Shown here: one piece after another, positions 17,563 to 63,623 of the stretch
Numbering within the stretch: the stretch's first letter is position 1
Layout of the letters: the number at the start of each line of letters is the position of its first letter
IMG/VR virus record: IMGVR_UViG_3300028920_001939
Length of the DNA stretch: 64,000 bases
Origin: a virus
Lineage: Duplodnaviria > Heunggongvirae > Uroviricota > Caudoviricetes
Reading direction: 5' to 3' (one strand)
Program-made: the position numbers and the translations under genes
Notes under the pieces: generated by a model
Told to the model about the DNA's origin: nothing
Database searches by the model: none
The model's input: the letters and a program-made list of their open reading frames with translations, nothing else

Positions 17563-17574
17563 AGGTGACATCGA

Positions 17575-17865: not shown

Positions 17866-17878
17866 ATATAACAACCGT

Positions 17879-17914
17879 GGAGGCATTTTGCCTCCTACCT
17901 TTTATCTTTTATTT
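17879..17914 (+). terminator. Hairpin plus oligo-T terminator after the paralogue pair
   Basis: ggaggc-atttt-gcctcc stem-loop immediately followed by taccttttatcttttattt. Confidence 0.5.
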
Positions 17915-17934
17915 ATGAATTGGAGGAAAGTTAA

Positions 17935-48253: not shown

Positions 48254-49651
48254 TTGTTTCTCCTAATCGCCTCTTTCGCTGTGGAGTTGGTGGCAACATT
48301 TATGGTTGGTGTGGTAATCAAATCAGAGGACTTTGGCGACAAACTTATATCTGATTATTTAGAAGTTTTCGACAAATATTCTTTTAAAAACAGATTCTAC
48401 GGAAATATTGCATTACACGTTATTTTAGGACAAGCATTGAAGAATGTTTATTATAGAATTGGAAGAAGAAAAATAGATATTCGTATTCATTTTATACTTA
48501 TCAAACCACAAGGAACTGGTAAAGGCGCAGGATTTGGTTTTTGTAAGAAAGCATCAGATTGGGTTGGTTTAGATTTTCAAGTTTTATCAGAATCAACAGA
48601 TGGTGGTTTAGCAGGTTCAAAGAAATACGACGCTTCTCAAAAGAAAGATATTGTTGTGCCGGGTTTACTTGAATATGCTGATGTAGTTGCTATGGAAGAA
48701 GCTTCCATATTGATTGATTTCGCTAATGAGTTTAGCAAGAAAAATATGACTTATATGCAAATCACTATGAATCCATTGGAAGATGATTCTTGTTATATAC
48801 ATAGAAGATTAGTTGGATTAGATATCAGTTTTAAACCACACGCTTCGTTTCTACTGATGAGTTATCCACCAGATAATATTGCTGATAAGATTGTAAAAAC
48901 TGGTTTCATTGATAGAATGGTAACTGATTTTGAAGATGTAACTTTAGTTGACAGATTAGAAGTTTTAAAGAAAATAATGGAAAATGCAAATCTTGATGAA
49001 GCAGAGTGGATGGATAAAGAACAGTATGTTAAGAAAAGATTACAATATATAGTAAAGAGATATGAGAAAGGTACTATATGTATCAATATAGAAGAAAAGA
49101 TACATCAGGCAGTATTACAATGTATTGATGAAATGGCAACAATGATACTGGACGCTTCACCTAAAGCAAGAGAGAAACTTGAACACTTTATCACACGTTT
49201 GTATGAAATTTTAGTTAAGTTATCAATACATCATGCGTTGTTATCAAATAGAACTGAATTGAGAATATCAGATGTGCTTTATGCACGAATGACCTATTTG
49301 CCTATATGGAGAAATCTTATCATTAGTATTGAATCATTATTAATTATTAGTCCACAAGAACGTTTTAGAAAGCACAGTATCAAATCACAAGCGATTAAAG
49401 AATATAAGAGATTGTTGAAAGAAGGTAGATTTGTTAAACAAGATGTTTGGGTTAGAAGATTAACTATGGTTCAGAATTTACAACCTAAATGGGATAACTG
49501 TAGTATGGAAACTGCAGATAATAATTTATCAAAATTAGAAGTATTACCTAAAGAAACTTATGGAAAGTTTTTGAAGGTTTCGCAGTATGAAAAAGAAAAG
49601 ATATTCAAAAGAAAATATTTTGGAGAAACTGCATATATAAAAATGATATAA
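48254..49651 (+). CDS. Hypothetical protein with divergent P-loop-like motif (candidate packaging/terminase-like NTPase; very tentative)
   Basis: TTG start in the track. KPQGTGKGAGF is Walker-A-like and VVAMEEAS is Walker-B-like. 465 aa. No confident assignment. Confidence 0.45.
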   Translation: MFLLIASFAVELVATFMVGVVIKSEDFGDKLISDYLEVFDKYSFKNRFYGNIALHVILGQALKNVYYRIGRRKIDIRIHFILIKPQGTGKGAGFGFCKKASDWVGLDFQVLSESTDGGLAGSKKYDASQKKDIVVPGLLEYADVVAMEEASILIDFANEFSKKNMTYMQITMNPLEDDSCYIHRRLVGLDISFKPHASFLLMSYPPDNIADKIVKTGFIDRMVTDFEDVTLVDRLEVLKKIMENANLDEAEWMDKEQYVKKRLQYIVKRYEKGTICINIEEKIHQAVLQCIDEMATMILDASPKAREKLEHFITRLYEILVKLSIHHALLSNRTELRISDVLYARMTYLPIWRNLIISIESLLIISPQERFRKHSIKSQAIKEYKRLLKEGRFVKQDVWVRRLTMVQNLQPKWDNCSMETADNNLSKLEVLPKETYGKFLKVSQYEKEKIFKRKYFGETAYIKMI

Positions 49652-49662
49652 GGAGGAAAAAG

Positions 49663-49848
49663 ATGAATTATAAAAAACAACCAATGCATTGGCAAAGAAT
49701 TAGATTTTTAGTAAAAAGATTGAAACAGTATAGAACAGAAGATGAGATAATTAATGAAATAAGAAAGTTGAAATGGACAGATTTTAATGAAAATATGTCA
49801 AGATTTCAAATAAGAAACGCAAAAAGATATGAATATAAAAAGATATAA
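49663..49848 (+). CDS. Hypothetical small protein
   Basis: 61-aa ORF with AGGAGG SD. Confidence 0.4.
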   Translation: MNYKKQPMHWQRIRFLVKRLKQYRTEDEIINEIRKLKWTDFNENMSRFQIRNAKRYEYKKI

Positions 49849-49859
49849 GGAGGAAAAAA

Positions 49860-50915
49860 ATGGCTCAAATACCAGAAGATATAAAGGCAGGAATTGAAGC
49901 ATTGAGTAAAGCGAAAGATACGCCAATAAAAGATTTGTTGGAGAGATTAAAGGAGATTATCAATGAAGATGAAAATTTAAAAGCGATGGATAATGATAAC
50001 TTTAAGATTAGAGTTGCTTGGGCTGCTTTGTATAAAGAATATTCTGCTGCTCAAGGTCAAGAGTGTTTGATAACACCTTTGTTACATTGTTCACCACGAT
50101 ATATAAGAATAAAAGAAGAAAACACAGCAGTTGGTGATATATCAGCACTTGTTAAACCTTTGAAGAATGAGAAAGGTGAAGAAATAGAGTATAAATCACC
50201 AGATGAAGGTTGGCAATACGCTGCTGGAACTCTTTGGAGAGATGCTGCTGAGAAAGCAGGTGATTTAGAAGTAGGTAAAGTTTACAACACTAAAGTTATT
50301 TTGACTAACACCTATGGAGAAAAAGGTAAAAAGAGAAAAGAAAGAGATTGGGGTTTAGGTATCATAGCAAGTAACGCAACTTTTTCTGTTTCGAAAGAGA
50401 AAGCACCTGATTTCAAGAAATTCTTTGAGAAAGAGATAGAAGATAACAACGAGATAATGATGTTATCAGATGCTGATATGAATCAAAGTGCACACGATAC
50501 AGATATCAGAGTTGTAAGAATTCAGATAATGGATGAAGATTTCGGTGAAAGAGAAGATGGGAGCGAATATGCTTTCTATGATATAATGGACAACTCAATT
50601 GCAGGTGAAACTAAAAGATTCTTTATTGATAAGAGAGATTACAAGTATATGCAAGGTTCTGTTTTACTTGCTGGTGTTATAGTTAGAAATACTGCGAAAG
50701 AAGATGAAGAACCTATATTTAGATTGAACCCACAATGGTTTATACCAGAGATTGCAGAAGAAGTATCATTTGAAGAAAAGAAATCAGAAGATACAGAAGA
50801 AATTGTACTTGATGAACCAGAAGAAAAAGAGGCAGAGAAAAAGGAAGATGTGGAGGAAAAACCTGAAGCGGAAAGTGAGGAAAAGAAAGAAGAAGGGGAT
50901 TTATTCGAGATTTAA
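49860..50915 (+). CDS. Hypothetical protein with long acidic C-terminal tail
   Basis: 351-aa ORF with AGGAGG SD. C-terminus EEKKSEDTEEIVLDEPEEKEAEKKEDVEEKPEAESEE. Confidence 0.5.
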   Translation: MAQIPEDIKAGIEALSKAKDTPIKDLLERLKEIINEDENLKAMDNDNFKIRVAWAALYKEYSAAQGQECLITPLLHCSPRYIRIKEENTAVGDISALVKPLKNEKGEEIEYKSPDEGWQYAAGTLWRDAAEKAGDLEVGKVYNTKVILTNTYGEKGKKRKERDWGLGIIASNATFSVSKEKAPDFKKFFEKEIEDNNEIMMLSDADMNQSAHDTDIRVVRIQIMDEDFGEREDGSEYAFYDIMDNSIAGETKRFFIDKRDYKYMQGSVLLAGVIVRNTAKEDEEPIFRLNPQWFIPEIAEEVSFEEKKSEDTEEIVLDEPEEKEAEKKEDVEEKPEAESEEKKEEGDLFEI

Positions 50916-50952
50916 ATTTCCCTTCTTCTATTTATTATGAAGGAGGAAAGAA

Positions 50953-52026
50953 ATGATTAAAAAAGAAACTTTAAAAAAACATGAAGCTGTTAATTTATGG
51001 GACCAAGAAGCTGAATCTTTAACTTTTACAGATTTTAAAGATTCTATTGCTGATACTGAAAAGTTGTTAGTATTTGGCGAAACTGGTTCTGGGAAAACAA
51101 AATTTTATATTGATAGATTCAGATATCTATACAAGAAAGGTGTAAAACCAGAAAATTTCTTCGCTTGTATTATATTGCCTGATAGACCAACAGGTATCAC
51201 TAAACTTGCTGATTTTATACCAGAAGAATACAAGGATAGAATAAAGATATTCCCTGTAAATCAATATGAAGATACTATCAAAGCAACGGCTACGGCTGTA
51301 AAACTATTAGAAGAACACTATCAAAAAACAGGTAAGTTTGGAGATTTAGTTTTCGAGTTAATGGAGAATTATTGGACATTTGCTCAAGATTATTTCTGTA
51401 GACAAGCATATGGTAAAACAATGGGAGAATTCTTTTCACAAATGCAATCAATAATGGGTGCTGATAAAGGTGATAAGAGAACTGCATATGAAGCATTTGC
51501 TGGACCCTTTGGTGGACCGTGGCCCATAATTAAGTTCTTTCACAACTTTAACTGGATTGATAAAGTAAAGAGATTACAATTCAATACGATTTTCACATCA
51601 GAGATTAAAGAAGAAACAAACAAAGATTCGATATTCTTTGATTTAGGTTTTAGACCTGCTGGTGAAAAACACAACCAGCACAAAATGGATAGCGTTGTTT
51701 ATGTATCTCATATAGGTGATGATTTCTTTATACGAGCATACAAACTTACTGGTTACACTAAATTGTATGGCAAAACTAAAGTTACGAATAAGAATGATTA
51801 TGAATCGCATTTGAAGTGTATCGAAGAATTAGAAAAACGTGGTTTTAAAGTATCTGCTATGAATGATTTAGAACAACAAGCAGGTATCGAACCACCAAAA
51901 AAAGAAGAAATTAAAGTTGTCAAAAAGGAGGAAATGACTGAAGAACAAAAAGAAGTTAAAAAGCAAGATGAGGAGGATAAACCCGAAGAAAGAGAAAGAG
52001 ATGATGATTGGGATTTATCATTGTAG
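50953..52026 (+). CDS. P-loop NTPase of unknown family
   Basis: Walker A VFGETGSGKTKF at about aa 40 with AGGAGG SD upstream. Acidic C-terminus. Confidence 0.5.
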   Translation: MIKKETLKKHEAVNLWDQEAESLTFTDFKDSIADTEKLLVFGETGSGKTKFYIDRFRYLYKKGVKPENFFACIILPDRPTGITKLADFIPEEYKDRIKIFPVNQYEDTIKATATAVKLLEEHYQKTGKFGDLVFELMENYWTFAQDYFCRQAYGKTMGEFFSQMQSIMGADKGDKRTAYEAFAGPFGGPWPIIKFFHNFNWIDKVKRLQFNTIFTSEIKEETNKDSIFFDLGFRPAGEKHNQHKMDSVVYVSHIGDDFFIRAYKLTGYTKLYGKTKVTNKNDYESHLKCIEELEKRGFKVSAMNDLEQQAGIEPPKKEEIKVVKKEEMTEEQKEVKKQDEEDKPEERERDDDWDLSL

Positions 52027-52149
52027 TGTTTTGTGAAAGAGAGTTTGGATATTTCGTTCTCCTTTCAGAAATACATCCACCTAGATATATTTCTTCACCA
52101 CACCAACTCTCCACAAAAGAACACTATGATGAAATAGAGGTGAATAAAA

Positions 52150-52914
52150 ATGAAATTTGTAATAAAACAAGAAAAACTTGAATATATGTTAGAAAAACTT
52201 TTGGTAAAAGATATGGTTCCATCTTCTGTTATATCAGTAAAAGATGGGAAGATGTTTTCTATTCAGAAGGAAGAAAAAGGCAGGTCGTTACGATTCTTAA
52301 AACTACAGAAAGAGTTTTTTGAAGAAATAGATGAGAAAGCGAATGAGTCAATACAACTTGATATTGCTAAGTTTCTTAAAAACGTGAAACTGTTTCCACC
52401 AAAAGAGAAACTTGAATGTGAAGTAATTGGATCTGTAATGAGTATCAAAGGTGAAGTTAGAAACCCTAAACTTACTATAGAATCGCCAAGAAGTGAAGTT
52501 ATGACTAAATTACCTTTTAATATCGAAGGTAATATTCCAACTGTAACAGATGATCAAGGCGCTGAAATTAAACTTGATGTGAAAGTAACAGTTGATGTTG
52601 CTGAATTTAGAGAGATAATAAGAGGTGCTGAAGCAATTGGAACTGAATTTTATGAATTTACCGATAAAGATGGAAAATTCTTAACTGTTGTTGGTGATTT
52701 GAATTCCAATGAGAAAGATGAATTTTTCCCTAAATCAATATTGAAAGGTAAAGATTTCAAAGCAGTTTACACTTATGGGATGCAGCAGATAGGTGCAACA
52801 TTTGATAAAGAGGTGAATATCAATATGGCGAATAACGCACCCGCTTGGGTATATGAAACATCAAAAGAACATTTACTTGGTGTGTTTATTCCGCCATTTA
52901 TGCAAGAAGATTAG
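52150..52914 (+). CDS. PCNA-like sliding clamp
   Basis: 254 aa, the typical PCNA size. Pattern resembles archaeal PCNA (…FSIQ…FFEEIDE…IQLDIAKFLKNVK…) and the C-terminus hGVFIPPFMQED matches the PCNA h.hLAP(K/R)hE(D/E) tail. Gene sits beside primase and RFC. Confidence 0.55.
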   Translation: MKFVIKQEKLEYMLEKLLVKDMVPSSVISVKDGKMFSIQKEEKGRSLRFLKLQKEFFEEIDEKANESIQLDIAKFLKNVKLFPPKEKLECEVIGSVMSIKGEVRNPKLTIESPRSEVMTKLPFNIEGNIPTVTDDQGAEIKLDVKVTVDVAEFREIIRGAEAIGTEFYEFTDKDGKFLTVVGDLNSNEKDEFFPKSILKGKDFKAVYTYGMQQIGATFDKEVNINMANNAPAWVYETSKEHLLGVFIPPFMQED

Positions 52915-52919
52915 ATAGA

Positions 52920-53900
52920 ATGTTTAAGGAATTGCCTCGGTACATGGGATTTCCCAATCAGAGCTTTGTTAAGAGAGAGTTTGCTTTTAACGCTTTCTTC
53001 AGAGAGCTCAACGGGGTTGCTCCTTTCTTTGTATCTACATATCAATTTAAAAATGAATCTACACCGATAGTTAATTCTCTTGTGTTTGATATTGATTCTA
53101 ATTTCGGTATGAGATTTCCATATAAGAATACTAAATCTTTGAAGAAATTTTGTGAAAATAACGATATACCATATGTGCTTGATTTTAGTGGTGGGAAAGG
53201 TTTTCATTTGTTTATGATTATAAAAGATATAATTCCAAAACCAGAAGAAAAAAATTCTTTAGCAGATAAGATGTATTCGGTCCAAGTTGCTTTAGCAAAA
53301 CATTTGAATATTGAATCTGTTGATTATCCAACATTTGGTAGATTGCATTTTCTTATAAGATACCCAACGAGTAAATATGTAAGAGCAAGAGAATCAAATG
53401 GGTTATATTGTAGAAACATAACATCAGAAGATTTTGATAGAGGTCTTAAACATATAGCAGAGATAGTAAAAACTCCAGGAGAAGTGCCGGAAACTCCAAA
53501 GGCGAAACAAAGTTTAGATGATATCATAAAGTTAGTGCCGAATTACAAAGAAATCGAAAGAGTAGATGGAGAAGATATGATACAGATAATTCGTGCTGGT
53601 ATGGAACCGCCTACAGTAGAAGCAGTTGCTTTGCCGTGTTTGAAAGATTTATCAAAACATTCACACCCAAGGCATTATGAAAGAGTAGAATTAGGTTCTT
53701 GGTTGAAGTTTCTGGGTTATACTGATTTGGCGATTATCACTTTTATGAAAAATCAGAACTGGACACGATTCAGTTACAATACAACACGATATCAAGTTAG
53801 CACGTTACAACCGAGATTTCCGAATTGTAAGAAATTGAAAGAAGTATATGGTGATTTATGTAAAGATTGTATATTGAATAAAAAGAGGAAGAAAAAATGA
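52920..53900 (+). CDS. Archaeo-eukaryotic primase catalytic subunit (PriS/Prim-Pol-like)
   Basis: Motif I LVFDIDSNF (DxD). Motif II DFSGGKGFHLF (SGxRG-F/Y-H). Motif III GRLHFLIRYPTSKY. Cys/His-rich C-terminus. Confidence 0.7.
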   Translation: MFKELPRYMGFPNQSFVKREFAFNAFFRELNGVAPFFVSTYQFKNESTPIVNSLVFDIDSNFGMRFPYKNTKSLKKFCENNDIPYVLDFSGGKGFHLFMIIKDIIPKPEEKNSLADKMYSVQVALAKHLNIESVDYPTFGRLHFLIRYPTSKYVRARESNGLYCRNITSEDFDRGLKHIAEIVKTPGEVPETPKAKQSLDDIIKLVPNYKEIERVDGEDMIQIIRAGMEPPTVEAVALPCLKDLSKHSHPRHYERVELGSWLKFLGYTDLAIITFMKNQNWTRFSYNTTRYQVSTLQPRFPNCKKLKEVYGDLCKDCILNKKRKKK

Positions 53901-54103
53901 CGAATAGTGTAAAAGATTTAAGAAAAGCATTGAAAAGAATGATGGGAGATTTATCAAAGAAACCAGATGAGAATCTTATCAGGGGTTACAAGAATGCTAT
54001 GAAAGATTACAAAGAAACTAAAGATGAGAAATGCTTACGAGCAGCTGAATTTATTAAGATAGAGTTAGATAAAAGAGGTATAGAAGTTGAAGATATACAT
54101 TGA
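53897..54103 (+). CDS. Hypothetical small protein
   Basis: 68-aa ORF with ATGA overlap. Confidence 0.4.
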   Translation: MTNSVKDLRKALKRMMGDLSKKPDENLIRGYKNAMKDYKETKDEKCLRAAEFIKIELDKRGIEVEDIH

Positions 54104-54746
54104 TAATCGAGAAGGAGAAAAGATAAATGCATTTAAAGAGTATATTTACAAACGAAAAAATAGTATTATTGATGATGTAAGAACTGGAAATTATCAAGTT
54201 AGCGATTATCATTCTGGTGATGGTTTAATTGGCATTGAGAGAAAGAAATCAGATTATACGAAAGATGTTTTTAGTGGCAAACTTGACCAGCAGTTGAAAG
54301 AGTTAAAAGATAATTTTGAATACCCATTTTTGTTTATAGATTACCCAAGTTTATCAGATTTGATAAGTGAATCTTTGGGAGTAAGCCCTCAAATTATTAT
54401 CGGCTCTTTGATATCAATATTAGCACGACACAAAGTTACTGTTATGTTTGTTGGTGGAATGTTTGTTCCATTTACTGTGAGATTATTTGAAAAATTTTAT
54501 GATGGGAAAACAAAACCTAAAGAGATGAATTATATTCCTATCAGAAGAAAATCAACATCATCAGAGATAAAGAGAGCGATGCTTGAGAATGTTTTTCCTG
54601 GATTAGGTAAAACTAAAGTGAATGCTTTGTTTGATCATTTTAATGGTTCATTTAAAGATATAGTAAATGCTGATACACAAGAATTGATGAAAGTAAAAGG
54701 TATAAGTAGCACACTTGCTTCGAAAATGGTAGAGGTGTTTAAATGA
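54087..54746 (+). CDS. Short archaeal-type XPF/ERCC4 nuclease with C-terminal HhH2
   Basis: IYIDNRE ... SDYHSGDG ... GIERKKSDY (ERCC4 ERK motif). C-terminal tandem helix-hairpin-helix GLGKTKVNALFDHFNGSFKDIVNADTQELMKVKGISSTLASKMVE. Track start is TTG. Confidence 0.6.
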   Translation: MKIYIDNREGEKINAFKEYIYKRKNSIIDDVRTGNYQVSDYHSGDGLIGIERKKSDYTKDVFSGKLDQQLKELKDNFEYPFLFIDYPSLSDLISESLGVSPQIIIGSLISILARHKVTVMFVGGMFVPFTVRLFEKFYDGKTKPKEMNYIPIRRKSTSSEIKRAMLENVFPGLGKTKVNALFDHFNGSFKDIVNADTQELMKVKGISSTLASKMVEVFK

Positions 54747-55699
54747 AAGATACACTTTTCGCTGAGAAATATAGACCACAAACATTATCAAAAATTATTG
54801 GTCAAGAACACGTTTTGAAATGGATTAAGAAATACGTTGAGAATGATGATATACCACATATGTTATTTGCTGGTCCTGCTGGTACTGGAAAGACAACCGT
54901 TGCTAAAGCACTTACTAAAGATTTATATGGAGATGATTGGAGATATTATTATCACGAAGTAAACGCTTCAGATGAAACTGGTGTTGAGAATATAAGAAAA
55001 TCTGTTAAAGATTTTGCAAGAATGAGAATAGTTGGTAGAAAATACAAGATAGTTTTCTTTGATGAAGCAGATTACTTGAGTATACCATCAATGGGTTGTT
55101 TAAGAAGAATAATGGAAGAATACGCACATATATGTAGATTTATTTTCAGTTGTAATTATCCAGAGAAAATAATTGATCCTATCAAAGACAGATGTAATGT
55201 TTTCAGATTCAAGAGTATCAAAGAAGATGATATGTTACCTTTGCTTTCTGAAATTGTGCAATCAGAAGAAATTGATATCAGAGATTCAGCACTTAAAGAA
55301 TTAGCAAGGTTATCACACGGTTCTATGAGAACAGCAACGAATTATTTACATCAGTTGAAACGAGCAAATATCAAAGATATACACAAAGAAGTAATCTATG
55401 AGATTACTGGTCACGTTGATGATAGTTTTATCAAACAGATGATTATGAAATGCAAAGAAGGTGATGTATCAATTGTTTATGATTATCTTCAAGATTTGCT
55501 GTATGATAAAGCGTATTCGCATAAAGAGATTATCAATACTTTAAGAGATGTAATTTTAGAATCTAAATCTAACAAGAAACTTGAGATACTTGAAAGATTG
55601 GTTGATACATCATTCAGAATATCATATGGCGGTGATGCTGAAGAACAGTTGTTTGGTTTTATGATATATTTAATGAAGATATTTGATGGAGGTAAATAA
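54743..55699 (+). CDS. Replication factor C small subunit (clamp loader)
   Basis: RFC box II EKYRPQTL. Walker A LFAGPAGTGKTT. NASDETGVENIRKSV. Walker B IVFFDEADYLS. SCNY-box IFSCNYPEKIIDPIKDRC, near-identical to the archaeal RFC-S consensus. Confidence 0.85.
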   Translation: MKDTLFAEKYRPQTLSKIIGQEHVLKWIKKYVENDDIPHMLFAGPAGTGKTTVAKALTKDLYGDDWRYYYHEVNASDETGVENIRKSVKDFARMRIVGRKYKIVFFDEADYLSIPSMGCLRRIMEEYAHICRFIFSCNYPEKIIDPIKDRCNVFRFKSIKEDDMLPLLSEIVQSEEIDIRDSALKELARLSHGSMRTATNYLHQLKRANIKDIHKEVIYEITGHVDDSFIKQMIMKCKEGDVSIVYDYLQDLLYDKAYSHKEIINTLRDVILESKSNKKLEILERLVDTSFRISYGGDAEEQLFGFMIYLMKIFDGGK

Positions 55700-55846
55700 A
55701 TGGAAAAACTAATGTGTGATGAAGATTGTTGGTTGATGAGATGGAGCAGATGTTATACAAATAATAAAGATGGCACTTGCGATAAGCCAGAAAGAAAGAA
55801 AAATGCAATGGAAACGAATGGTGGATTTACAGGATTTGATGGGTAA
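55700..55846 (+). CDS. Small Cys-rich protein
   Basis: Not in the track (48 aa). MEKLMCDEDCWLMRWSRCYTNNKDGTCDK. Confidence 0.3.
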   Translation: MEKLMCDEDCWLMRWSRCYTNNKDGTCDKPERKKNAMETNGGFTGFDG

Positions 55847-56013
55847 TGCAGAAAACTTATTGTGATATATGCAAAGAAGAAATTCCAAGAAAACATATAG
55901 AAGATTGCTATATTAGATTAGATATAGGTGGAATGGATTTTCAATGGGATTTGTGTAAGAAATGTAAAGATAGGTTATTTACATCAATTGAATGGATGTT
56001 GAAAGATTATTGA
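55846..56013 (+). CDS. Small zinc-ribbon protein
   Basis: Not in the track. CDICKEE...CKKCKD, two CxxC pairs. TAATG overlap. Confidence 0.3.
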   Translation: MQKTYCDICKEEIPRKHIEDCYIRLDIGGMDFQWDLCKKCKDRLFTSIEWMLKDY

Positions 56014-56024
56014 GGTGAAAAAGA

Positions 56025-56177
56025 ATGAAAAAGAATATGCCCTGGTTTGGGATTGGTAAATTACAGATATACTATAAATGTAAAAACTGTAATGAGAAGC
56101 AAGTGTTAGAAGAAAAAACAGTTATATATTTCTTAAAAAGAATATTTCCTATTCCACTTTTATCAAAGTCGATTTAA
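56025..56177 (+). CDS. Small zinc-ribbon protein
   Basis: Not in the track (50 aa). ...YYKCKNCNEKQ. Confidence 0.25.
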   Translation: MKKNMPWFGIGKLQIYYKCKNCNEKQVLEEKTVIYFLKRIFPIPLLSKSI

Positions 56178-56247
56178 ATGGAAGAAGAAACATTTGGTCA
56201 AAGAGTAAAGAAACTTGCTGAAAAAGCAAGATATCTTGATATGTTAG

Positions 56248-56727
56248 ATGAGGAGAATAGAAATGAAAAATGAAGAAGTTGATGAAGAAGAATCTGAAGT
56301 TAATTTGAAGCATTGGCTAACGAGAACTATCATATTACTTGCTATTTTTAGTATGTTAATCTATATGACAGAGATTACGTTTAAAGTTGAATTGTTATCA
56401 AATACAATTATGGTAATAGCAATTGCGGTATCACTTGGTTTAATCCACGAGTATTTGCATTATTATCAAGCAGTTAAACTTGGTTATAATCCTGTATGGT
56501 ATAGAACGAGATTCACTATGGGATTCGAGATATCACATAAATCTGCGAGAGGTAAGTGGGTTAAAGATAAGAAGAAGATATCATTGTTACCTTATAAAGT
56601 ATTGTTACCAGCATCAGTTGTAATATTTTGTATTGGATTTTATTTTGACATTTGGGGTATTTGGCTTGGTGGTGTGATGGGAATACTTTTACACACGATA
56701 GCATACCCTTTGACGGAGGGGCATTAA
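56248..56727 (+). CDS. Membrane protein with HExxH motif adjacent to a TM helix
   Basis: 3-4 TM helices. LGLIHEYLHYYQA (HEYLH) lies at the end of TM2. Possible intramembrane metalloprotease-like fold. Speculative. Confidence 0.4.
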   Translation: MRRIEMKNEEVDEEESEVNLKHWLTRTIILLAIFSMLIYMTEITFKVELLSNTIMVIAIAVSLGLIHEYLHYYQAVKLGYNPVWYRTRFTMGFEISHKSARGKWVKDKKKISLLPYKVLLPASVVIFCIGFYFDIWGIWLGGVMGILLHTIAYPLTEGH

Positions 56728-56894
56728 TGGAAAAATGTATAGAGAAAGGATGTGGAAATGAAGCAAGATGTTATGTCCATAATGGAAATGGTGTTTTAAG
56801 ATTTTGTTTCGAACACTACAAGAAGTATAGTGATAAACAACTTAAAGAAAGAATGAAATTAATAACAGATTTTCAACCTGTGAAAGATGAATAG
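56727..56894 (+). CDS. Small Cys/His-rich protein
   Basis: ATG at 56727 (track ORF 56652 overlaps the upstream gene). MEKCIEKGCGNEARCYVHNGNGVLRFCFEHY. Confidence 0.35.
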   Translation: MEKCIEKGCGNEARCYVHNGNGVLRFCFEHYKKYSDKQLKERMKLITDFQPVKDE

Positions 56895-57687
56895 AGGTAT
56901 TAGTCAATCAGGCATATGTCTTTACAGGTTTTGTCCATATGCCTACAAGTTGAAATATATCGATAAGTGTATACCGATGAGTTACGATTCATCAGCGATG
57001 GATACGGGAAGTTACGTACACGAAGCGATAAAGAGTTATTACTGGACTAAATTCTCAATGGATAATACTGCTAACGATATATTTTATGATACTTACAACA
57101 AGTTAAGAGAACTTTGGGATATCACACTTGAACCAGAATGGTTAAAAAAGGCATATGATTGTTTAAAGACACACGCTGAATGGGAATATCAAAATATTAA
57201 GAAAGGTATCACTAAACCATTCTCTGAAATAAAAATAGATCAAAATAATATCGATAAAACAAATAATGGTTACTTTGGAATTCTTGATTACGTTAATCTA
57301 CAGAAAGCACAAGTTATAGATTGGAAGACAGGTAGTTATCCAACAGTATCATTTGAGTATAGAATGCAAGCGCATGTTTATAAGATATTGTTTGAGAGTA
57401 AATTTGATACGAAACTCAAAGATTTTTATTTCTTTTATCTTTACCCAAATCAATGGCGTAAGATATCATATACTAACCCGAAACAGATTGAAGCGGGTAA
57501 AGAATGTGATTATTTGTTATCAAAGATTTTAGATAATGGCTACGAGAAAAAGCCAAGATTAGAAAATAGTTGTAGATACTGCGATTTTAAGTATTACTGT
57601 AAGGTTATCGAAGAACCTTACCAGATAAAAAACGAAATATATAAAAACATAAAAGAAGATTCAGATGTGAGAAAGCAATATGATTAG
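56887..57687 (+). CDS. Cas4/RecB-family PD-(D/E)xK exonuclease with Fe-S cluster cysteines
   Basis: N-terminal LYRFCPYAYKL (Cas4 N-terminal Cys). GILDYVNL...VIDWKTG (D...EhK-like core, cf. Cas4 IVDYKTG). QAHVYK (QhxxY). C-terminal CRYCDFKYYC (CxxCx5C). Confidence 0.7.
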   Translation: MNRGISQSGICLYRFCPYAYKLKYIDKCIPMSYDSSAMDTGSYVHEAIKSYYWTKFSMDNTANDIFYDTYNKLRELWDITLEPEWLKKAYDCLKTHAEWEYQNIKKGITKPFSEIKIDQNNIDKTNNGYFGILDYVNLQKAQVIDWKTGSYPTVSFEYRMQAHVYKILFESKFDTKLKDFYFFYLYPNQWRKISYTNPKQIEAGKECDYLLSKILDNGYEKKPRLENSCRYCDFKYYCKVIEEPYQIKNEIYKNIKEDSDVRKQYD

Positions 57688-57820
57688 AGATGGGGCAGAA
57701 AAAGATAGGTTTATTTGCCATAGTTGCGCAAATAGAGATTCTTGTGAAGATGGTAAAACAAGAGATTACAGATGGGGTCCCATTATAATTGAATGCACAA
57801 GTTATAAAGAGGATATTTAA
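57680..57820 (+). CDS. Small Cys-rich protein
   Basis: Not in the track (46 aa). ...FICHSCANRDSCEDG... Confidence 0.25.
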   Translation: MIRDGAEKDRFICHSCANRDSCEDGKTRDYRWGPIIIECTSYKEDI

Positions 57821-57821
57821 T

Positions 57822-59060
57822 ATGGAAAAAATAAAGTTATATGATGATTTACCAGATAACGCAGAACCTTATAAAACACCCATAAAACTAATGCCAACAG
57901 AAACATATTGCTGTCCCGCTTCTTTAAAAGTTGATCTATACCTTGGTTGTAGTTTTAGTTGTTTATATTGTTTCGCTATGGATTGGTTTCTGAATATGTA
58001 TCACAACTGGTATCGACCATCTAAACCAGCAGATATATCAATTGTAGAGAAAGAATTTTACAATGCTTTCAAAGGTAAAACAAACACTTATCTTGCTAAA
58101 GCATTACGACACAGACAATACATACGATTGGGAAGTATGACAGATAGTTTTCAGCACATAGAGAAAAAACATAAACTTACATACGAATTCTTTAAAATAG
58201 CAAATAAATATGATAAATACCCTGTTTTGATATTTACAAAATCAATAATTCAAGCAGAAAATGAATATATCAATCTGATGAAAGATGGCAATTATGTTTG
58301 CCAAGAGAGCATATCAATTTGGAATGATGAATTGAGAAAGAAGATTGAACCCGGCACTTGGTCAACAGAAAAGAGATTTGAAGCGTTAGCGAAGTTGAAT
58401 CGAAATGATATACCAATTCAAGTTAGAATTTCGCCACATTTGTATCAATTAACAGATATGAGTGATACTATCAAGATTATTGATAAGGCGAAAGAAGTTG
58501 GCGTTAATGAGATTATTTGGGAGCCGATTAGGATTACAACGCCGTGCAATAAGATATTCTTACAAGAAAGTGGTATTGATTTGATACAGAAGATGAAAGA
58601 TTACGGCGATACTGAATCAGATTATAGTGGTGGGAGTTACAGGAATATTTTTCCGATTAGGCAGAAAGTTATGAATGAAGTTAAGAAAGAAGTTGAAGAT
58701 AGAGATATGAAGTTCTATCATTGTTTGGCTGAAAACGCTTGTAATGCATCATGTCCCGGAGAGGACTGTTGTGGAATGGATAATTATCCCGAGTTTAGTA
58801 AGGGTGCTGTAAAGCGCAATATACAGAAGATATATATGCTTTTGAAAGAGAAAGGCGAATTATCAATTGATGATGTTGCGCATTTACACACTTGCCACGA
58901 CAAAGAGGCAGAGGCACAATGGAATAATGGTTCTCTTGTTAAGTATATGGCTGATGTTGTGTTTGATGAAAGAGATAAAGTTTACAGATATCAAAAAGAT
59001 GCTTATATGGGAGAAAATTTAAGGCATAAGAAAGTGGTGAAGGTGGATAAATGGCTATAA
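57822..59060 (+). CDS. Radical-SAM enzyme, SplB/spore-photoproduct-lyase-like (COG1533-type DNA repair)
   Basis: LGCSFSCLYCFA = CxxxCxxC radical-SAM cluster motif in the N-terminal region, resembling SplB-like CSHxCxYCY. Additional C-terminal Cys cluster (CPGEDCCGMDNYPEF). Track start 57789 is TTG; the in-frame ATG at 57822 is likely. Confidence 0.6.
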   Translation: MEKIKLYDDLPDNAEPYKTPIKLMPTETYCCPASLKVDLYLGCSFSCLYCFAMDWFLNMYHNWYRPSKPADISIVEKEFYNAFKGKTNTYLAKALRHRQYIRLGSMTDSFQHIEKKHKLTYEFFKIANKYDKYPVLIFTKSIIQAENEYINLMKDGNYVCQESISIWNDELRKKIEPGTWSTEKRFEALAKLNRNDIPIQVRISPHLYQLTDMSDTIKIIDKAKEVGVNEIIWEPIRITTPCNKIFLQESGIDLIQKMKDYGDTESDYSGGSYRNIFPIRQKVMNEVKKEVEDRDMKFYHCLAENACNASCPGEDCCGMDNYPEFSKGAVKRNIQKIYMLLKEKGELSIDDVAHLHTCHDKEAEAQWNNGSLVKYMADVVFDERDKVYRYQKDAYMGENLRHKKVVKVDKWL

Positions 59061-59854
59061 CAAAAAAGATTAATGAAAAAAATAAATTAATTGAATTATT
59101 AAAAAATATTCCACATTCTGATAAAGAAAATGAAGAAACACTTACAATTAAAATAATTGTTGATAATGATACTAGAATAATAAAAAATATTCCAAAAAGA
59201 TATGAATTGCCGTGTAATCTTAAAAGTTCTGTTTTGAAAAAAGAGTTTATGGAAAAATTAAACTTTATTTTTTTAGGTGAAGAAACAGAGTTATATGATT
59301 ATCAGAATAAAAGAAAAGAAGTAGGTCAACCAGATTTTATGATAAAGCCGAAAATATTGAATGATGTATCTATTGTTCAAGAACACAAGGTTAAAGGTGA
59401 TTCAATAAGAGAATCGCAAGAAGATTATTTATTTAATCATACTGATGAAGTTGGTATGTTTATTTATGTTGATAAATTTTATACAAAAAATGAATATAAG
59501 AATGTACTTCTTACTTATGATAATATAATTTACCAACTTGATAATTTTTCTAAAAAACAACCATATAGGCATCCAAAAACTAATAATCCATATATTGAAT
59601 TATATCAAGATGATTGGCCCGATAATACAAAGGATAGAACGATGGTTGGTGGAGGAATAGTTGTTTTAGGAAAAGTTATCTATCATTCTGGTAATGGATA
59701 TTTAATAAGATCAAGTTTTAATGACATACCTTATGATGATCACAAAGGAGTTCCTATAACACAAAGAGAAATAGATATTATAAAACTTGAGATAAAAGAT
59801 ATAATACATCAACAGCAACAATTAGTTTATAGTAGGAGGAAGAAAGATGTATGA
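59051..59854 (+). CDS. Hypothetical protein
   Basis: 267-aa ORF overlapping the upstream gene end. Confidence 0.45.
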   Translation: MAITKKINEKNKLIELLKNIPHSDKENEETLTIKIIVDNDTRIIKNIPKRYELPCNLKSSVLKKEFMEKLNFIFLGEETELYDYQNKRKEVGQPDFMIKPKILNDVSIVQEHKVKGDSIRESQEDYLFNHTDEVGMFIYVDKFYTKNEYKNVLLTYDNIIYQLDNFSKKQPYRHPKTNNPYIELYQDDWPDNTKDRTMVGGGIVVLGKVIYHSGNGYLIRSSFNDIPYDDHKGVPITQREIDIIKLEIKDIIHQQQQLVYSRRKKDV

Positions 59855-60368
59855 TATCAAACGTATAGAATATTATGTTAATCATCCAGAAGAAATAAAA
59901 ATTTCAAAAAATTGGATGAATGTTATTCTTGATTGTACTCCAAAAGGAAGAAAATTTTGTAAAGGTAAATGTTGTTATGATCACGGTGATAAAAAAGATA
60001 AAGGGATATTTGTTAGATATACAGATGATGAAGTAAAGAAACTTCCTAAATCTTTTAAAAAACACATAAAAGATAACAATGTTGTTAAAGTTGATAAAGA
60101 TGGTAAATGTGAATTGATTAATTTATGTATGAAATATCCTAAATATAAACCTATAGAATGTAAATTGATACCGTTAACTATTGATAAACGTGGTTTGTTA
60201 CAGATATATGTAGGTTCATTAAGTGGATGCCCAAATCTTAACAGAGGTAAAACTCCTGTTTATATTGCTATGAAGGATAATCTTATAGATTTATTTGGAG
60301 AAGAATTTTATAAAAGATTAGAAAATAAGATGAAAACAGATAATAATTCTGTTGATAAATATATGTGA
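59847..60368 (+). CDS. Hypothetical Cys-rich protein
   Basis: Multiple Cys (CTPKGRKFCKGKCCYDHGD ... CELINLC ... CKLIP ... CPN). Confidence 0.45.
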   Translation: MYDIKRIEYYVNHPEEIKISKNWMNVILDCTPKGRKFCKGKCCYDHGDKKDKGIFVRYTDDEVKKLPKSFKKHIKDNNVVKVDKDGKCELINLCMKYPKYKPIECKLIPLTIDKRGLLQIYVGSLSGCPNLNRGKTPVYIAMKDNLIDLFGEEFYKRLENKMKTDNNSVDKYM

Positions 60369-60377
60369 GGAAATTAA

Positions 60378-60545
60378 ATGAAAGATATAATTTGCCAAGA
60401 TTGTAAGAAAAAAGTTGGCGAAGTCGAAGAAGATTCTATGATAATATCATCAGATCCATTTTATGGTATTGATATTTATTGTAATAAATGTAAAGAGAAA
60501 CATATAAATGATTTTAGAGAGGATGAAAATCAGTTGGTGAATTAA
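60378..60545 (+). CDS. Small zinc-ribbon protein
   Basis: Not in the track (55 aa). CQDCKKK...CNKCKEKH. Confidence 0.3.
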   Translation: MKDIICQDCKKKVGEVEEDSMIISSDPFYGIDIYCNKCKEKHINDFREDENQLVN

Positions 60546-61208
60546 ATGAAACCGTTTTTGTATGAGGGAACTTATGTTTGTTATCCTATGATAACAATAG
60601 TTGAAGCAAACAGGACTATAAGAAATGATACATTACAGCATATCGTTTTATTCGATTTGGCTGAAACAGATATGGGTTTAGGGCAAGTTAATTTCAGAAA
60701 GACATCATCATTCTGTAGCAAAGGCAACTTTGTGCACGGTATCAATTACACACACCCATCTTTAGAGTTTCACGCTATAGGTAAAGAATTTATGTATGAT
60801 TTTAATGGTATTGATATAAACGATTACAACAGATGGGATAATGTGAATAAGAATCTTATCAACGGCAATATCAAGCCCGGCGCACATATCTGTTGCGCAG
60901 GTGAGTGGGAGTTCGGCACTATAGGTGATAATCTTTATGCTGGTGTTGGCATTGCGGTGCCAGAAGATAAGAAGAATGCTATTTTGTTTATGGAATGTGT
61001 TGGTAAGACGATTGAGATAACGAGGGAAACGATACGAGAAGATATCATTGAATCGATTGTGCAAATAGGTAAGAATCAGAATATCAAATACAAAGAAATA
61101 TATGTAGTAACAGATGAGAAAACACTACAGAAGGATTTGGGGTGTGCGATGGTAACGATACCTTATTTTTTGATAGAGAAAATACCGTATTTTTTAAAGG
61201 AGAAATAA
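60546..61208 (+). CDS. Hypothetical protein upstream of the methyltransferase
   Basis: 220-aa ORF with no recognizable motif. Confidence 0.45.
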   Translation: MKPFLYEGTYVCYPMITIVEANRTIRNDTLQHIVLFDLAETDMGLGQVNFRKTSSFCSKGNFVHGINYTHPSLEFHAIGKEFMYDFNGIDINDYNRWDNVNKNLINGNIKPGAHICCAGEWEFGTIGDNLYAGVGIAVPEDKKNAILFMECVGKTIEITRETIREDIIESIVQIGKNQNIKYKEIYVVTDEKTLQKDLGCAMVTIPYFLIEKIPYFLKEK

Positions 61209-61209
61209 T

Positions 61210-61758
61210 ATGGTAAAAAATATAAGTGATAATACAGTACAACAATATGAAAATGTAATAAATAGTATAATAAAAACAATTTATGAATTATTTGAAGTAG
61301 AAATTACATATGAAAAAATAGAAATTCCATTTGAGCAAAGAAACGGATATCATTATGATTATATTTATAGATATTCTTTAAAAGATGAAAATTATGTTAA
61401 TGATGGTGTTACACCTGTGAATTTACATACTACATATAGAGATGTATCATTTAAAAAACCAAGATATAAAGATGGAACTCGTGCTTGTTTTCATAATTGC
61501 AAAAAAGTTGATGAAATAATATTTTTTGATGAATTAAATGATATTCAAGAATTAATAAAGAAAGATATTAACAATTTTTGTTCTTCTATGAAAAGATATG
61601 CATTTATTTGGGCTTGTGCATATTTTGAATTTGCTGTTGGAATTCTTGTGAATAAAATAGTTGATGGGTTAGAACACGATAAAACAAATGAGTTTATATC
61701 TTTTGATGATTTTATAATTGAGGTTAAAAAGAATATTAATAATGGAAAATGGTTATAA
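61210..61758 (+). CDS. Hypothetical protein immediately upstream of, and overlapping, the DNA MTase (candidate restriction or control partner; unproven)
   Basis: 182 aa. Weak PD-(D/E)xK-like stretch ([10 protein letters not shown]). Overlaps the MTase start by 10 nt. Confidence 0.4.
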
Positions 61759-63623
61759 TGAAAGATAAGTGGATTAACAAAATACATTGCGGAGATAACA
61801 TAGAGTTATTGAAACAATTACCAGAAGAATCAGTTGATTGTGTGATAACATCGCCACCATATTGGGGGTTAAGGAGCTATTCTGATGCTGCTGTTAAGAT
61901 ATGGGGTGGAGATCCAAATTGTGAACACGAATGGGGAACATCACATACTCGCCATCAGGAGGCACCGGGTAAAACCTCTTTAGTTAAACAGAAAGGACTT
62001 GCATATGATGTTACAACACATACTTGCACAAAATGCGGTGCTTGGAAAGGGCAGTTCGGACTTGAACCACACCCAAATATGTATATCGAACATTTAGTAG
62101 AAATATGCAGAGAAATACGCAGAGTATTGAAGAAAACAGGTTCTTTCTATCTAAATTTAGGTGATTCATACTATAATTCTCCTGCTGGTAACAAAGAACT
62201 AACTCAATCAATATCAAAAGGCACCGCAAAAGCACAAGATATAGCATCAAAGAAAAGAGTTTTTCGACCAGATGGAAAGTGGCTCCGACCGAAACAACTG
62301 TTACTTATACCCACAAGAGTTGCGGAAGCATTACAAGAAGATGGGTGGATTTTAAGAAATGATTTAATATGGAATAAACCGAATCCAATGCCCACCAGCG
62401 TAGTTGATAGATTAAACAACACTTATGAACATATTTTCTTTTTTGTTAAAAACGAGTCATATTTCTTTGATTTAGATGTTATACGAGAAAAACCCTCAAC
62501 CGGCGTTGAATACACACGCAAAGCATCAGGTATCAAAGGCAACGTAGGCGCTATGAACCGGCAATCAATGCAAGACATATCAAATAATCCACTTGGTAAA
62601 AACCCCGGCGATGTATCAACATTTGAAAGTGTTACAATAGATGCAGAATTAGAAAAGATAAAAGATGATATCGAGTATCATATCAATAAGATATTCGTTT
62701 TAGCAAAGCAACGAGATAGAGAAACATACGGCGGTAAGTATAGTGATTGTGGTGAAGGTAAAGATGGTAAATCAACACAAGAATATTTAGTATCAATCAG
62801 AAGAACTGCTGATGAGTATGTCAAAGAAAACAAGCTAACTGGAAAAATAGCGCAGGTTATCAAGGATTATGCACACGGTTATGCTGGTAATCCTGCTGGT
62901 AGAAATCCTGGTGATATCTTTACAATAACTGTGCAACCATTTGCTGAAGCACACTTTGCTGTTTTCCCACCAGAGTTAGCAAGAAAACCTTTGATATCAT
63001 CTTGTCCTAAAGAAATCTGTACTGAATGTGGATCGCCAAGAGAAAGAATACTTGAAGATGTAAAACAATTAACACCTAAACAAGAAGAAGATTTGAAGAA
63101 ACAAAGAGAAAAGCAACAAGAGTATATTAAAGCCGGTGGAGGTCGTGGTGGTTTGCCTTCAACTGATTTGATATCAACAGAGAAAGTAACAGTTGGTTGG
63201 ACAGAATGTGGTTGTAAGGCACCTTATGCACCGGGAGTTGTTTTAGATCCATTTAATGGTAGTGGTACTACTTGTTTAGTTGCGAAACAAGAAGGCAGAA
63301 GATATATTGGTTTCGATATCAATCCAGATTATTGTGAAATGGCAAGAAACAGAATTGCTAAAGTTACCAATGTTGATGAGTGGGGTGGAAAGAATTACAA
63401 CTACCCATTGAAAAGTTACACTAATGCAGTAGTTCAATCAGGCGAAGTTGAAATTGAAGATGAATTCTTTGGTGGAGATTACAAGGTAAAAACAGAACTT
63501 GATGATGAAGAAACGATTGAAACAGTATCAAAGAGTGAAGGTAGCAAAGAAGTTAAGGGTAAAATGAGTAAAAAAGAATTTGTATCAAAAGATAAGAAAG
63601 AGGAGATAGATTGGGAGATTTAG
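61749..63623 (+). CDS. DNA methyltransferase, beta-class N6-adenine/N4-cytosine type
   Basis: Motif [12 protein letters not shown] near the N-terminus. Motif [12 protein letters not shown] near the C-terminus, so IV-before-I order = beta class. A long insertion of about 350 aa lies between them. K/E-rich C-terminal tail. Confidence 0.8.

Follow-up and report, generated by a model that had tools for sequence, protein, structure and literature searches.

Does a mobile element bring its own machinery for copying DNA, and what kind of element is it? The question is raised by positions 48,254–63,623 of a 64,000-nucleotide viral sequence (IMGVR_UViG_3300028920_001939; the whole stretch is referred to as the window). 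In this interval, the original prediction had recognized an archaeal-type module containing PCNA, the primase PriS, XPF-HhH2, the replication factor C small subunit (RFC-S), Cas4, an SplB-like radical S-adenosylmethionine (rSAM) protein and a DNA methyltransferase (MTase), and had proposed that the module belongs to a mobile element with semi-autonomous replication. This reading is upheld, and a family-B DNA polymerase (PolB), an RFC large subunit (RFC-L)-like ATPase and an MCM-like ATPase are now added to the set. The interval probably constitutes most of the replication/repair block of a ~100.9-kb circular or terminally redundant double-stranded DNA element, most likely an archaeal virus from an uncultured lineage of anoxic habitats (e.g. 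landfill leachate).

A replication and repair block on a circular or terminally redundant molecule

The window has a GC content of ~32% and carries nearly all of its genes on the + strand. The open reading frames (ORFs) cited in the original prediction all lie on this strand at the coordinates given there. The PCNA assignment is confirmed by its predicted fold and the PriS, XPF-HhH2, RFC-S, Cas4, rSAM and MTase assignments by profiles (Table 1), and the quoted motifs (SCNY, DxD/SGGKGFH, ERK, QhxxY and CxxxCxxC) are all legible in the translations.

Exact-protein matches map the window to the 101,246-bp contig ena:ERZ27252253:k141_4173328, in which window positions 3416 and 61210 correspond to record positions 55840 and 12778, respectively. 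The contig has a period of 100,856 bp, with a 390-bp repeat at its ends (window 48433–48822). The window and the contig differ at 6 of the 26,584 bases compared, and five of these differences cluster at window positions 58247–58298, within the rSAM gene. Since the window spans both ends of the contig, the molecule must be either a circle or a circularly permuted, terminally redundant form. The junction of the contig ends falls within the MCM-like helicase gene, which probably explains why no identical helicase protein had been recorded.

The first gene encodes an MCM-like AAA+ ATPase

The original prediction had found no recognizable helicase and expected one nearby, either outside the window or among the unassigned P-loop proteins, which include the ORF that opens at position 48254. 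The start of this ORF is most likely the ATG at 48302, and the resulting length of 449 residues matches that of its relatives. The absence of a recognizable helicase holds at the sequence level. The protein has no match in Pfam (including PF00493), PHROG or the PDB, a 36-sequence profile of its family retrieves nothing from the PDB by sequence, and a protein search finds no homolog in the haloarchaeal virus HCTV-16 or in any GenBank phage or archaeal virus record. The family comprises at least 124 clusters (90% identity) at E ≤ 0.001, each of ~450–500 residues, and none of the 120 clusters listed carries a Pfam domain.

Modeling leads to a different result. In the AlphaFold2 model (pLDDT 89.1), the N-terminal OB/Zn domain of MCM is absent, and ~45 residues forming two helices precede the ATPase core. 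The model contains β-hairpins at residues 106–119 and 166–177, which fit the helix-2 insert and the pre-sensor-1 hairpin, and ends in a winged-helix-like structure. The 50 best matches of the model in a Foldseek search of the PDB are all MCM subunits (best E 5.6e-10), and the comparison with Sulfolobus solfataricus MCM (SsoMCM) yields a root-mean-square deviation of 4.4 over 370 columns. In a search of predicted viral structures, phage DUF3987, helicase and primase-helicase proteins rank highest. Moreover, a profile–profile alignment (hhalign) with six genuine viral MCMs (92.3% probability, E 5.5e-07, 63 columns) pairs the P-loops (GTGKG/GTGKS), an MCM GLTA-like segment, the pre-Walker-B stretch and a GA-x-V-x-AD segment. 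In the 36 aligned family members, the K74, E132/E133 (Walker B MEE) and R205 residues are invariant and T/S187 is conserved. The P-loop (residues 69–77) follows the pattern P-[QS]-G-[TS]-G-K-G-A-G, with G73-K74-G75 in 36/36 members, and thus contains glycine at the usual Mg2+-coordinating Ser/Thr position instead of the canonical GK[ST]. Because the N-terminal OB/Zn domain is absent, PF00493 is unmatched and the P-loop lysine is invariably followed by glycine, the protein is described as MCM-like, a candidate fork helicase, as opposed to MCM proper.

The helicase assignment derives from structure prediction and from a profile match over 63 columns, and both the P-loop glycine and the missing N-terminal domain speak against it. 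These two features, together with the lack of a PF00493 match, would also suit a MoxR/chelatase-type remodeler or an initiator/loader, with unwinding performed by a host MCM or by the product of a gene in the part of the genome outside the DNA read. MCM and MoxR fall within the same AAA+ clade, and the viral fold search lists a MoxR-like ATPase at rank 50. Such a role is unlikely given that the 50 best PDB fold matches are MCM subunits throughout, the leading viral fold matches are phage helicase and primase-helicase proteins, the profile match covers the MCM-specific GLTA-like and GA-x-V-x-AD segments, and K74, E132/E133 and R205 are invariant. In addition, the gene comes first in the conserved block of all relatives examined, and a separate MoxR/CobS-like gene is already present at position 41508. 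The MCM-like ATPase therefore stands as the candidate helicase that had been expected among the P-loop proteins.

SSB-like protein and AAA_24 ATPase

The second large gene of the block had been proposed to encode an SSB/RPA-like protein. Its family has 57 representatives among 1.84 billion proteins. The family profile matches only two chains in the PDB, both of which are bacterial single-stranded DNA-binding proteins (SSBs; E 0.035 and 0.37), at a conserved tlWrdaA motif, and the acidic D-L-F-E-I tail is kept in the relatives. That SSBs are the sole PDB matches agrees with the proposal, and the matches are weak; the protein is best read, with weak support from its sequence, as SSB-like.

The adjacent P-loop protein had been counted among the possible helicases. 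PF13479 (AAA_24) is matched by 26 of the 34 members of its family (best E 4.8e-07) and is precomputed on many relatives, and a profile search of PDB sequences was uninformative. The protein thus belongs to AAA_24, which we take to be the Sak4-type RecA-like group, and is not a helicase candidate. In phage systems, Sak4 is stimulated by the tail of its SSB.

Sliding clamp, clamp loader and polymerase

The PCNA protein has no Pfam (PCNA_N/PCNA_C), PHROG or PDB sequence match, either as a single sequence or as a 15-member profile. Its AlphaFold2 model (pLDDT 90.5) adopts the two-domain clamp fold over the full length. The top Foldseek matches in the PDB are all PCNAs of archaeal or eukaryotic origin (TM 0.70–0.77, 13–16% identity), including Archaeoglobus fulgidus PCNA (1rxm; E 1.2e-13). 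Archaeal PCNAs rank first, and gp45 is not among the 50 matches listed. The protein is a PCNA, as is evident from the predicted fold only. Neither PCNA nor XPF, which is an ERCC4/Hef-type protein, is thus reassigned to an unrelated fold.

RFC-S exceeds the cut-off of the archaeal RFC-small equivalog NF001679 of NCBIfam (322.4 versus 303 bits; E 2.7e-96) and matches the Pfam families Rep_fac_C (3.6e-14) and AAA (2.3e-13). Its translation contains the GPAGTGKT, FDEAD and SCNY motifs and a DRC motif, in which the serine of the SRC-type arginine finger is changed to aspartate. The best RFC-S matches among cultured viruses come from the haloarchaeal Druskaviridae, with 33.8% identity to the HCTV RFC-S, and cyanophage gp44 is 28–31% identical. 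A single-protein scan of IMG/VR with RFC-S returned nothing.

No scanned ORF within the window matches a polymerase profile, in line with the original prediction, which had expected a family-B polymerase nearby, either outside the window or among the unassigned P-loop proteins. The source contig encodes a 738-residue PolB that starts 2,501 bases past the window end. The PolB gene is preceded by a serine recombinase gene and followed by an RFC-L-like gene, and thus the clamp loader has both subunits.

A fused PriS–PriL primase

The primase had been described as PriS. The catalytic DxD/SGGKGFH part of this assignment is retained, and the protein is not PriS alone. D57/D59, S90-G-G-K-G-F-H96 and the cysteine residues C240, C303, C314 and C317 are invariant in five homologs, and residues 198–296 match Pfam PriL (PF04104, DNA_primase_lrg; 23.2 bits against a cut-off of 22.4, 5e-05). 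The protein also matches the primase PHROG 16345 (6.1e-08) and, from end to end, HCTV-16 gp99, annotated by its depositors as a PriS-N/PriL-C fusion. No match was obtained to Pfam DNA_primase_S or in a GenBank phage protein search, and a profile search of the PDB was uninformative. The protein is a PriS–PriL fusion with a C-terminal Fe-S domain, in which cluster binding is predicted.

Nucleases and DNA-modifying proteins

The short XPF protein narrowly passes the Pfam cut-offs of ERCC4 (25.3 versus 24 bits) and HHH_5 (28.1 versus 27 bits), contains a GDGLIGIERK motif and matches the NCBIfam models of Hef nuclease (3.4e-19) and archaeal Xpf (6.2e-08). The Cas4-like nuclease matches PDDEXK_1 (2.1e-19) and Cas_Cas4 (2.8e-05; 24.7 bits, cut-off 22.7), and C15, CRYC...C and QAHVY are found in its translation. 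Its match to TIGR00372 cas4 (3.9e-08, 33.3 bits) lies below the cut-off of 65. The protein is a virus-type nuclease like HCTV-16 gp91, and the window contains no repeat arrays. The rSAM protein matches the PA0069/Rv2578c families (1.3e-24 and 4.4e-17) far below their equivalog cut-offs (86.8 versus 360 bits), as well as PHROG 13321 (1.6e-22) and a 'DNA repair photolyase' PHROG (2.7e-05). For the MTase, the 621-residue gene call on the source contig indicates that translation probably starts at the ATG at 61758.

Proposed operation of the block

Enzymatic roles are assigned here from what is known of the respective families. The block would be transcribed rightward, with an archaeal BRE/TATA-like promoter motif ahead of its first gene. 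The MCM-like AAA+ ATPase may serve as the fork helicase without the usual N-terminal domain, and the acidic-tailed SSB-like protein would coat the single strands. Primers would be made by the fused PriS–PriL primase and extended by PolB. RFC-S and the RFC-L-like subunit are expected to load the divergent PCNA ring, probably as an RFC-S4/RFC-L1 assembly acting on a PCNA trimer. The AAA_24/Sak4-type ATPase may support strand annealing or recombination-dependent replication, and the XPF/Hef-type and Cas4-like nucleases may process flaps, forks or ends. The SplB-like rSAM protein and the N4/N6 methylase would repair and mark the DNA, with methylation being potentially protective.

Conservation of the block in metagenomic relatives

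Five relatives were examined, on contigs of 35–141 kb and with MCM-like proteins that are 39–61% identical. The order MCM-like ATPase, SSB-like protein, AAA_24 ATPase and then primase and XPF is found in 5/5 relatives. PCNA is located between the AAA_24 ATPase and the primase in four of them, whereas no PCNA gene occupies this position in the fifth (L009). RFC-S is seen in one relative and the resolvase–PolB pair in another. One source sample, the sole metagenome traced, is landfill leachate.

Some relatives (L005 13514–20756, L007 16547–20780, L018 12179–17218 and L012 6561–8482) also encode AglB/STT3, many glycosyltransferases, sugar epimerases and transaldolase. One relative carries genes for GTP cyclohydrolase I and a QueE-like rSAM protein of the 7-deazaguanine pathway, which are also present in HCTV-16.

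A shared C-terminal tail

Several proteins of the element end alike: PolB in IDKWL, RFC-L in MDKWL, the rSAM protein in VDKWL, the 182-residue protein in GKWL and the MTase in IDWEI. The SSB-like and AAA_24 proteins terminate in DLFEI and DWDLSL, respectively. A [KRD]W[LFMI] end occurs in 4 of 102 proteins, namely PolB, RFC-L, the rSAM protein and the 182-residue protein (binomial p ~2e-06). The tail is kept in the relatives as DKWF, DRWM or DDWL. In HCTV-16, PolB, RFC-L and two proteins of unassigned function end analogously in VL-x-F/W. C-terminal PIP boxes with the pattern QxxLxxWL mediate the binding of archaeal PolB and RFC-L to PCNA. The tail described here resembles a Q-less PIP peptide; the likeness is suggestive only, and the hydrophobic-D-K-W-L tail on PolB, RFC-L, the rSAM protein and others would probably dock them on PCNA.

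One observation detracts from a functional interpretation. The AAATGG sequence encoding the K-W tails contains ATG, and part of the motif could thus reflect overlapping start codons. Counter to this explanation, the gene following PolB starts 14 nucleotides later. As a tentative and rather doubtful proposal, the lineage may run its replisome with two unusual components: an unannotated, core-only, MCM-related helicase of ~450 residues with a GKG P-loop, and a divergent PCNA hub that recruits PolB, RFC-L, the rSAM protein, the methylase and proteins of unassigned function through a shared tail (hydrophobic-D-K-W-L/F), that is, a shortened Q-less PIP box. The unannotated GKG P-loop helicase family and the shared C-terminal DKWL tail look new.

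Promoter motif and host signals

The pattern AAANNYTTATAAA, to which the motif ahead of the block belongs, occurs five times in the window against 1.24 copies expected, always on the + strand (positions 38504, 41461, 43138, 46568 and 48187). In four cases a gene begins shortly after the motif, the helicase gene being one of them, and CGAAA precedes two of the five. The motif upstream of the helicase gene is not conserved in the relatives because coding ORFs abut the gene there. Two of the five copies stand ahead of a MoxR/CobS-like AAA_5 ATPase gene (41508–42719) and a CobT-like VWA protein gene (43185–45182), a pair that is also found in HCTV-16 (gp61/gp60) and in the relatives.

Signals of an archaeal host include the equivalog-level RFC-S, the archaeal PCNA folds at the top of the structural matches, the Hef/Xpf-type nuclease, AglB/STT3 in the relatives, the BRE/TATA-like enrichment and a homolog from Pyrococcus abyssi virus 1 (PAV1). 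The latter concerns the P-loop ATPase at 39067, whose sole match in 50,697 phage and archaeal virus records is a hypothetical PAV1 protein (23% identity, E 5e-07). Shine-Dalgarno-like sequences (GGAG/GAGG/GGTG at −18 to −4) precede 64 of 90 genes across the whole window, against a background of 15%; strong signals of this kind do not discriminate the host domain.

Virus, plasmid, chromosome or bacteriophage

The archaeal virus reading has to be weighed against several findings. Profile and BLAST searches of the ~78 kb read revealed no capsid, portal or terminase gene, a scope that leaves 22.5 kb of the contig outside. Neither a ligase nor FEN1 nor RNase H is seen within the window, the SSB call depends on a match at E = 0.035, and the sole match of the helicase family in a genome collection is a 15.6-kb contig in a Candidatus Saccharibacteria metagenome-assembled genome (MAG). 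The lack of head genes in the window and its flanks would fit a large plasmid or other non-viral extrachromosomal archaeal element with its own replisome and with surface and glycosylation genes. The large ORFs at 9–30 kb (fn3, BNR, DUF2341, DUF11) suit cell-surface proteins as well, and a serine recombinase gene adjoins PolB. Such an element is nonetheless quite improbable. The replication genes are collinear with those of a family of cultured tailed viruses, IMG/VR lists two relatives, the small-ORF-rich single-strand layout is virus-like with several PHROG matches, and the 22.5 kb outside the DNA read could hold head genes. A chromosomal origin, either as cellular replication genes or as a decayed provirus island, is extremely improbable. 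RFC-S resembles its cellular counterparts closely enough to exceed the equivalog cut-off; however, the window joins both ends of the 101-kb contig, no tRNA gene is present in the window, and no housekeeping gene appeared in any profile scan made. Furthermore, PCNA, primase and helicase have diverged much further than cellular orthologs, and the block recurs on many separate 35–141 kb contigs. The mobile element of the original prediction is thereby preserved.

The Saccharibacteria match also raises the possibility that the element is a bacteriophage with acquired archaeal-like replication genes, infecting, for instance, Saccharibacteria or another CPR group. The strong Shine-Dalgarno signals and a Zn-peptidase common to many bacteriophages would accord with this origin, and an RFC-like clamp loader and a PolB are known from T4-like phages as well. 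The MAG contig (CAZNER010000046.1; L014/L010), however, consists of this same replication module, which makes mis-binning of a low-GC viral contig probable. RFC-S passes the archaeal equivalog cut-off and has its closest matches in haloarchaeal viruses, and the PCNA fold matches, the Hef/Xpf nuclease, the BRE/TATA-like motifs, the PAV1 homolog, AglB in the relatives and the collinearity with an archaeal virus all point to Archaea. A bacteriophage is accordingly very improbable, and an archaeal virus remains the preferred reading of the element.

Other features of the element

Within the block, the decarboxylase-like gene is an auxiliary metabolic gene and not a replication gene (Table 1). The first two of the three tiny ORFs that follow RFC-S are also called on the source contig, and tiny zinc-ribbon ORFs, which the original prediction had considered as possible replisome accessory factors, are abundant in HCTV-16 too. 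The membrane protein in the middle of the block has no family match in Pfam or PHROG.

Outside the block, the region 9057–30210 contains very large ORFs (879, 1253, 631, 702 and 834 residues) with fn3, BNR_4, DUF2341, DUF4815 and DUF11/DUF7507 domains and without PHROG matches, which could be tail/adhesion proteins or cell-surface-type proteins. Three consecutive ORFs (24816–25418, 25415–26365 and 26362–27696) have near-identical ends (HYGESY, HFGEDYT and HYGETY), which suggests paralogous fiber or surface proteins with a common C-terminal module. The Zn-peptidase (7867–9060; phrog_4191, 1.8e-67) shares 37% identity with a protein of Rhizobium phage Pasto. The first ORF of the window (22–3045; L003 4909–9630) represents the C-terminal 1007 residues of a 1573-residue protein without a family match. 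In a seemingly intergenic stretch of 759 bp, two or three tandem paralogous small + strand ORFs (17311–17934; 77–82% DNA identity) start with MKTRFGFIDPGAIMG, contain a hydrophobic segment and are masked by an overlapping minus-strand ORF.

Searches for virion genes in these regions were negative: Pfam and PHROG reveal no virion hallmarks in the large ORFs at 7.8–31 kb or in many small ORFs, the HCTV-16 proteins compared (terminase, portal, gp111 and gp112) have no match in the ~78 kb read, and no ORF from this DNA matches a structural gene of that virus. In metagenome relatives at 74–75% identity, the downstream DNA contains UDG and glycosylation genes and no head genes. A 448–460-residue gene located after a winged helix-turn-helix (wHTH) gene was considered as a terminase and dropped, as it has no family match. 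A Borg-like element was ruled out, with just four weak two-copy tandem repeats in the 64 kb.

Table 1. Genes and signals of the replication/repair block and its flanks, with counterparts in HCTV-16
Feature	Coordinates	Strand	Basis or remark	HCTV-16 counterpart
P-loop ATPase (GSPGSGKTS, FDEFGE)	39067-39942		phrog_22963; PAV1 homolog	
BRE/TATA-like promoter motif AAACTTTTATAAA	48187..48199	+	within the 152-bp gap ahead of the module's first gene	
MCM-like AAA+ ATPase (candidate helicase), 449 aa	48302..49651	+	predicted structure and profile–profile match	
Basic ORF, 61 aa	49663..49848	+	ORF list, translation	
SSB-like protein, 351 aa, acidic C-terminal tail DLFEI	49860..50915	+	homolog of gp103	gp103, SSB-like protein (profile 48.3 bits)
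AAA_24 (Sak4-type, RecA-like) P-loop ATPase, 357 aa, acidic tail DWDLSL	50953..52026	+	homolog of gp102	gp102, AAA_24 ATPase (profile 30.6 bits; tblastn 4e-11)
Highly divergent PCNA sliding clamp, 254 aa	52150..52914	+	predicted fold	gp100, PCNA (profile 22.7 bits)
Archaeo-eukaryotic primase, PriS-like catalytic domain and PriL-like C-terminal domain, 326 aa	52920..53900	+	motifs, profiles	gp99, primase (profile 46 bits)
68-aa ORF	53897..54103	+	ORF list, translation; also called on source contig	
Short XPF/Hef-type ERCC4 nuclease with C-terminal HhH2	54087..54746	+	profiles	
RFC-S (clamp-loader ATPase)	54743..55699	+	curated equivalog profile	gp94, RFC-S
Three tiny ORFs (48, 55 and 50 aa) with Cys motifs	55700..56177	+	55-aa ORF: two CxxC pairs, zinc-ribbon-like	
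Small multi-pass membrane protein, HEYLH (HExxH) metalloprotease-like motif	56248..56727	+	translation	
Cas4-like PD-(D/E)XK nuclease, four Cys	56887..57687	+	profiles	gp91, Cas4
rSAM protein, PA0069/Rv2578c (SplB-like) group, ends VDKWL	57789..59060	+	CSFSCLYC motif, profiles	
267-aa protein	59051..59854	+	no family match	
Cys-rich DUF3109-like protein	59847..60368	+	PF11307 1.8e-08	
55-aa zinc-ribbon ORF (CxxC...CxxC)	60378..60545	+	translation	
Pyruvoyl-dependent arginine/histidine decarboxylase-like protein	60546..61208	+	PF02329 2.2e-06, PF01862 7e-05, TIGR00286 3.2e-07	
182-aa protein ending GKWL	61210..61758	+	translation	
N4/N6 DNA methyltransferase, ends IDWEI	61749..63623	+	PF01555 (N6_N4_Mtase) 3.8e-42	
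Serine recombinase	65040-65684 (window-equivalent)		PF00239 Resolvase; upstream of PolB	
PolB, 738 aa	66501-68717 (window-equivalent; L001 15292-17508)		PF03104 and PF00136	gp89, PolB
RFC-L-like ATPase	69012-70040 (window-equivalent; L001 17803-18831)		3.2e-14	gp85, RFC-L

Comparison with known replication systems

The overall architecture of the block is already known, which makes the finding useful more than surprising. The few archaeal viruses with a near-whole archaeal replisome are joined by a deep-branching relative that is neither halophilic nor marine, and such a relative helps to trace the spread of the module between biomes. PCNA, the helicase and the SSB-like protein escape standard profiles, and annotation pipelines therefore under-count viral replisomes. 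Three unannotated families gain a name and a testable function, and the shared C-terminal tail provides a simple, testable handle on the enzymes recruited by the viral clamp.

The closest cultured system is found in the Druskaviridae (Thumleimavirales; HCTV-16/HCTV-1), haloarchaeal siphoviruses with genomes of similar size (~104 kb). The block is collinear with HCTV-16 from gp103 through gp102, gp100, gp99, gp94, gp91 and gp89 to gp85 (Table 1). HCTV-16 also shares an ERCC4 nuclease, the CobS/CobT pair and many Zn-finger mini-ORFs, located elsewhere in its genome, and its PolB and RFC-L have a common C-terminal aromatic tail, as observed here. The two systems differ in that protein identities reach just 19–34%, the MCM-like helicase is present only here, XPF lies within the block here, the GC content is 32%, and the samples include landfill leachate and not salterns. 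The window lacks the RadA, RNR and Que genes that HCTV-16 carries. A nucleotide search of GenBank phages with the window gave no match. The replisome module is thus a very divergent, distant relative of the known archaeal tailed-virus-type module.

Magroviruses (Aoguangviridae, Magrovirales), which infect marine Poseidoniales, have circularly assembled genomes of 90–100 kb with ~31.5% GC and a near-complete archaeal replisome of PolB, archaeo-eukaryotic primase (AEP), PCNA, RFC-S and MCM (PMC10768690). They possess a sequence-recognizable MCM, a split PolB, ligase and GroEL/ES, and their replication and morphogenesis clusters are opposed (PMC10768690). Compared with this published description, the element has nearly one-way genes, an unannotated helicase family lacking the N-terminal domain and a single 738-residue PolB. 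The MCMs of archaeal viruses and plasmids (BJ1, HFTV1, HATV-3, TPV1 and Altiarchaeum virus) align with the MCM-like protein in the AAA+ core, Walker A, the GLTA-like segment and the pre-Walker-B stretch. These MCMs contain ~550–780 residues, an N-terminal OB/Zn domain and a GKS P-loop and are found by tblastn with an MCM consensus, whereas the protein described here has 449 residues and a GKG P-loop.

For the primase, a functionally characterized fusion precedent is PolpTN2 of archaeal plasmids, in which, according to PMC3973330, a PriS-like catalytic domain is likewise followed by a PriL-related C-terminal domain in one polypeptide. The primase of the element differs from PolpTN2 in having 326 residues, with four invariant cysteines in the PriL-like part, and its demonstrated relative is HCTV-16 gp99. 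The T4-type replisome (gp43 PolB, gp45 clamp, gp44/62 loader, gp32 SSB and UvsX) shares with the block a clamp, a clamp loader, a PolB, an acidic-tail SSB and a RecA-like ATPase. In contrast to T4, the clamp fold of the element is nearest to archaeal PCNAs, the loader passes the archaeal RFC-S model, the primase is of the AEP type instead of DnaG-like, and the candidate helicase is an AAA+ MCM-like protein instead of a DnaB-like one.

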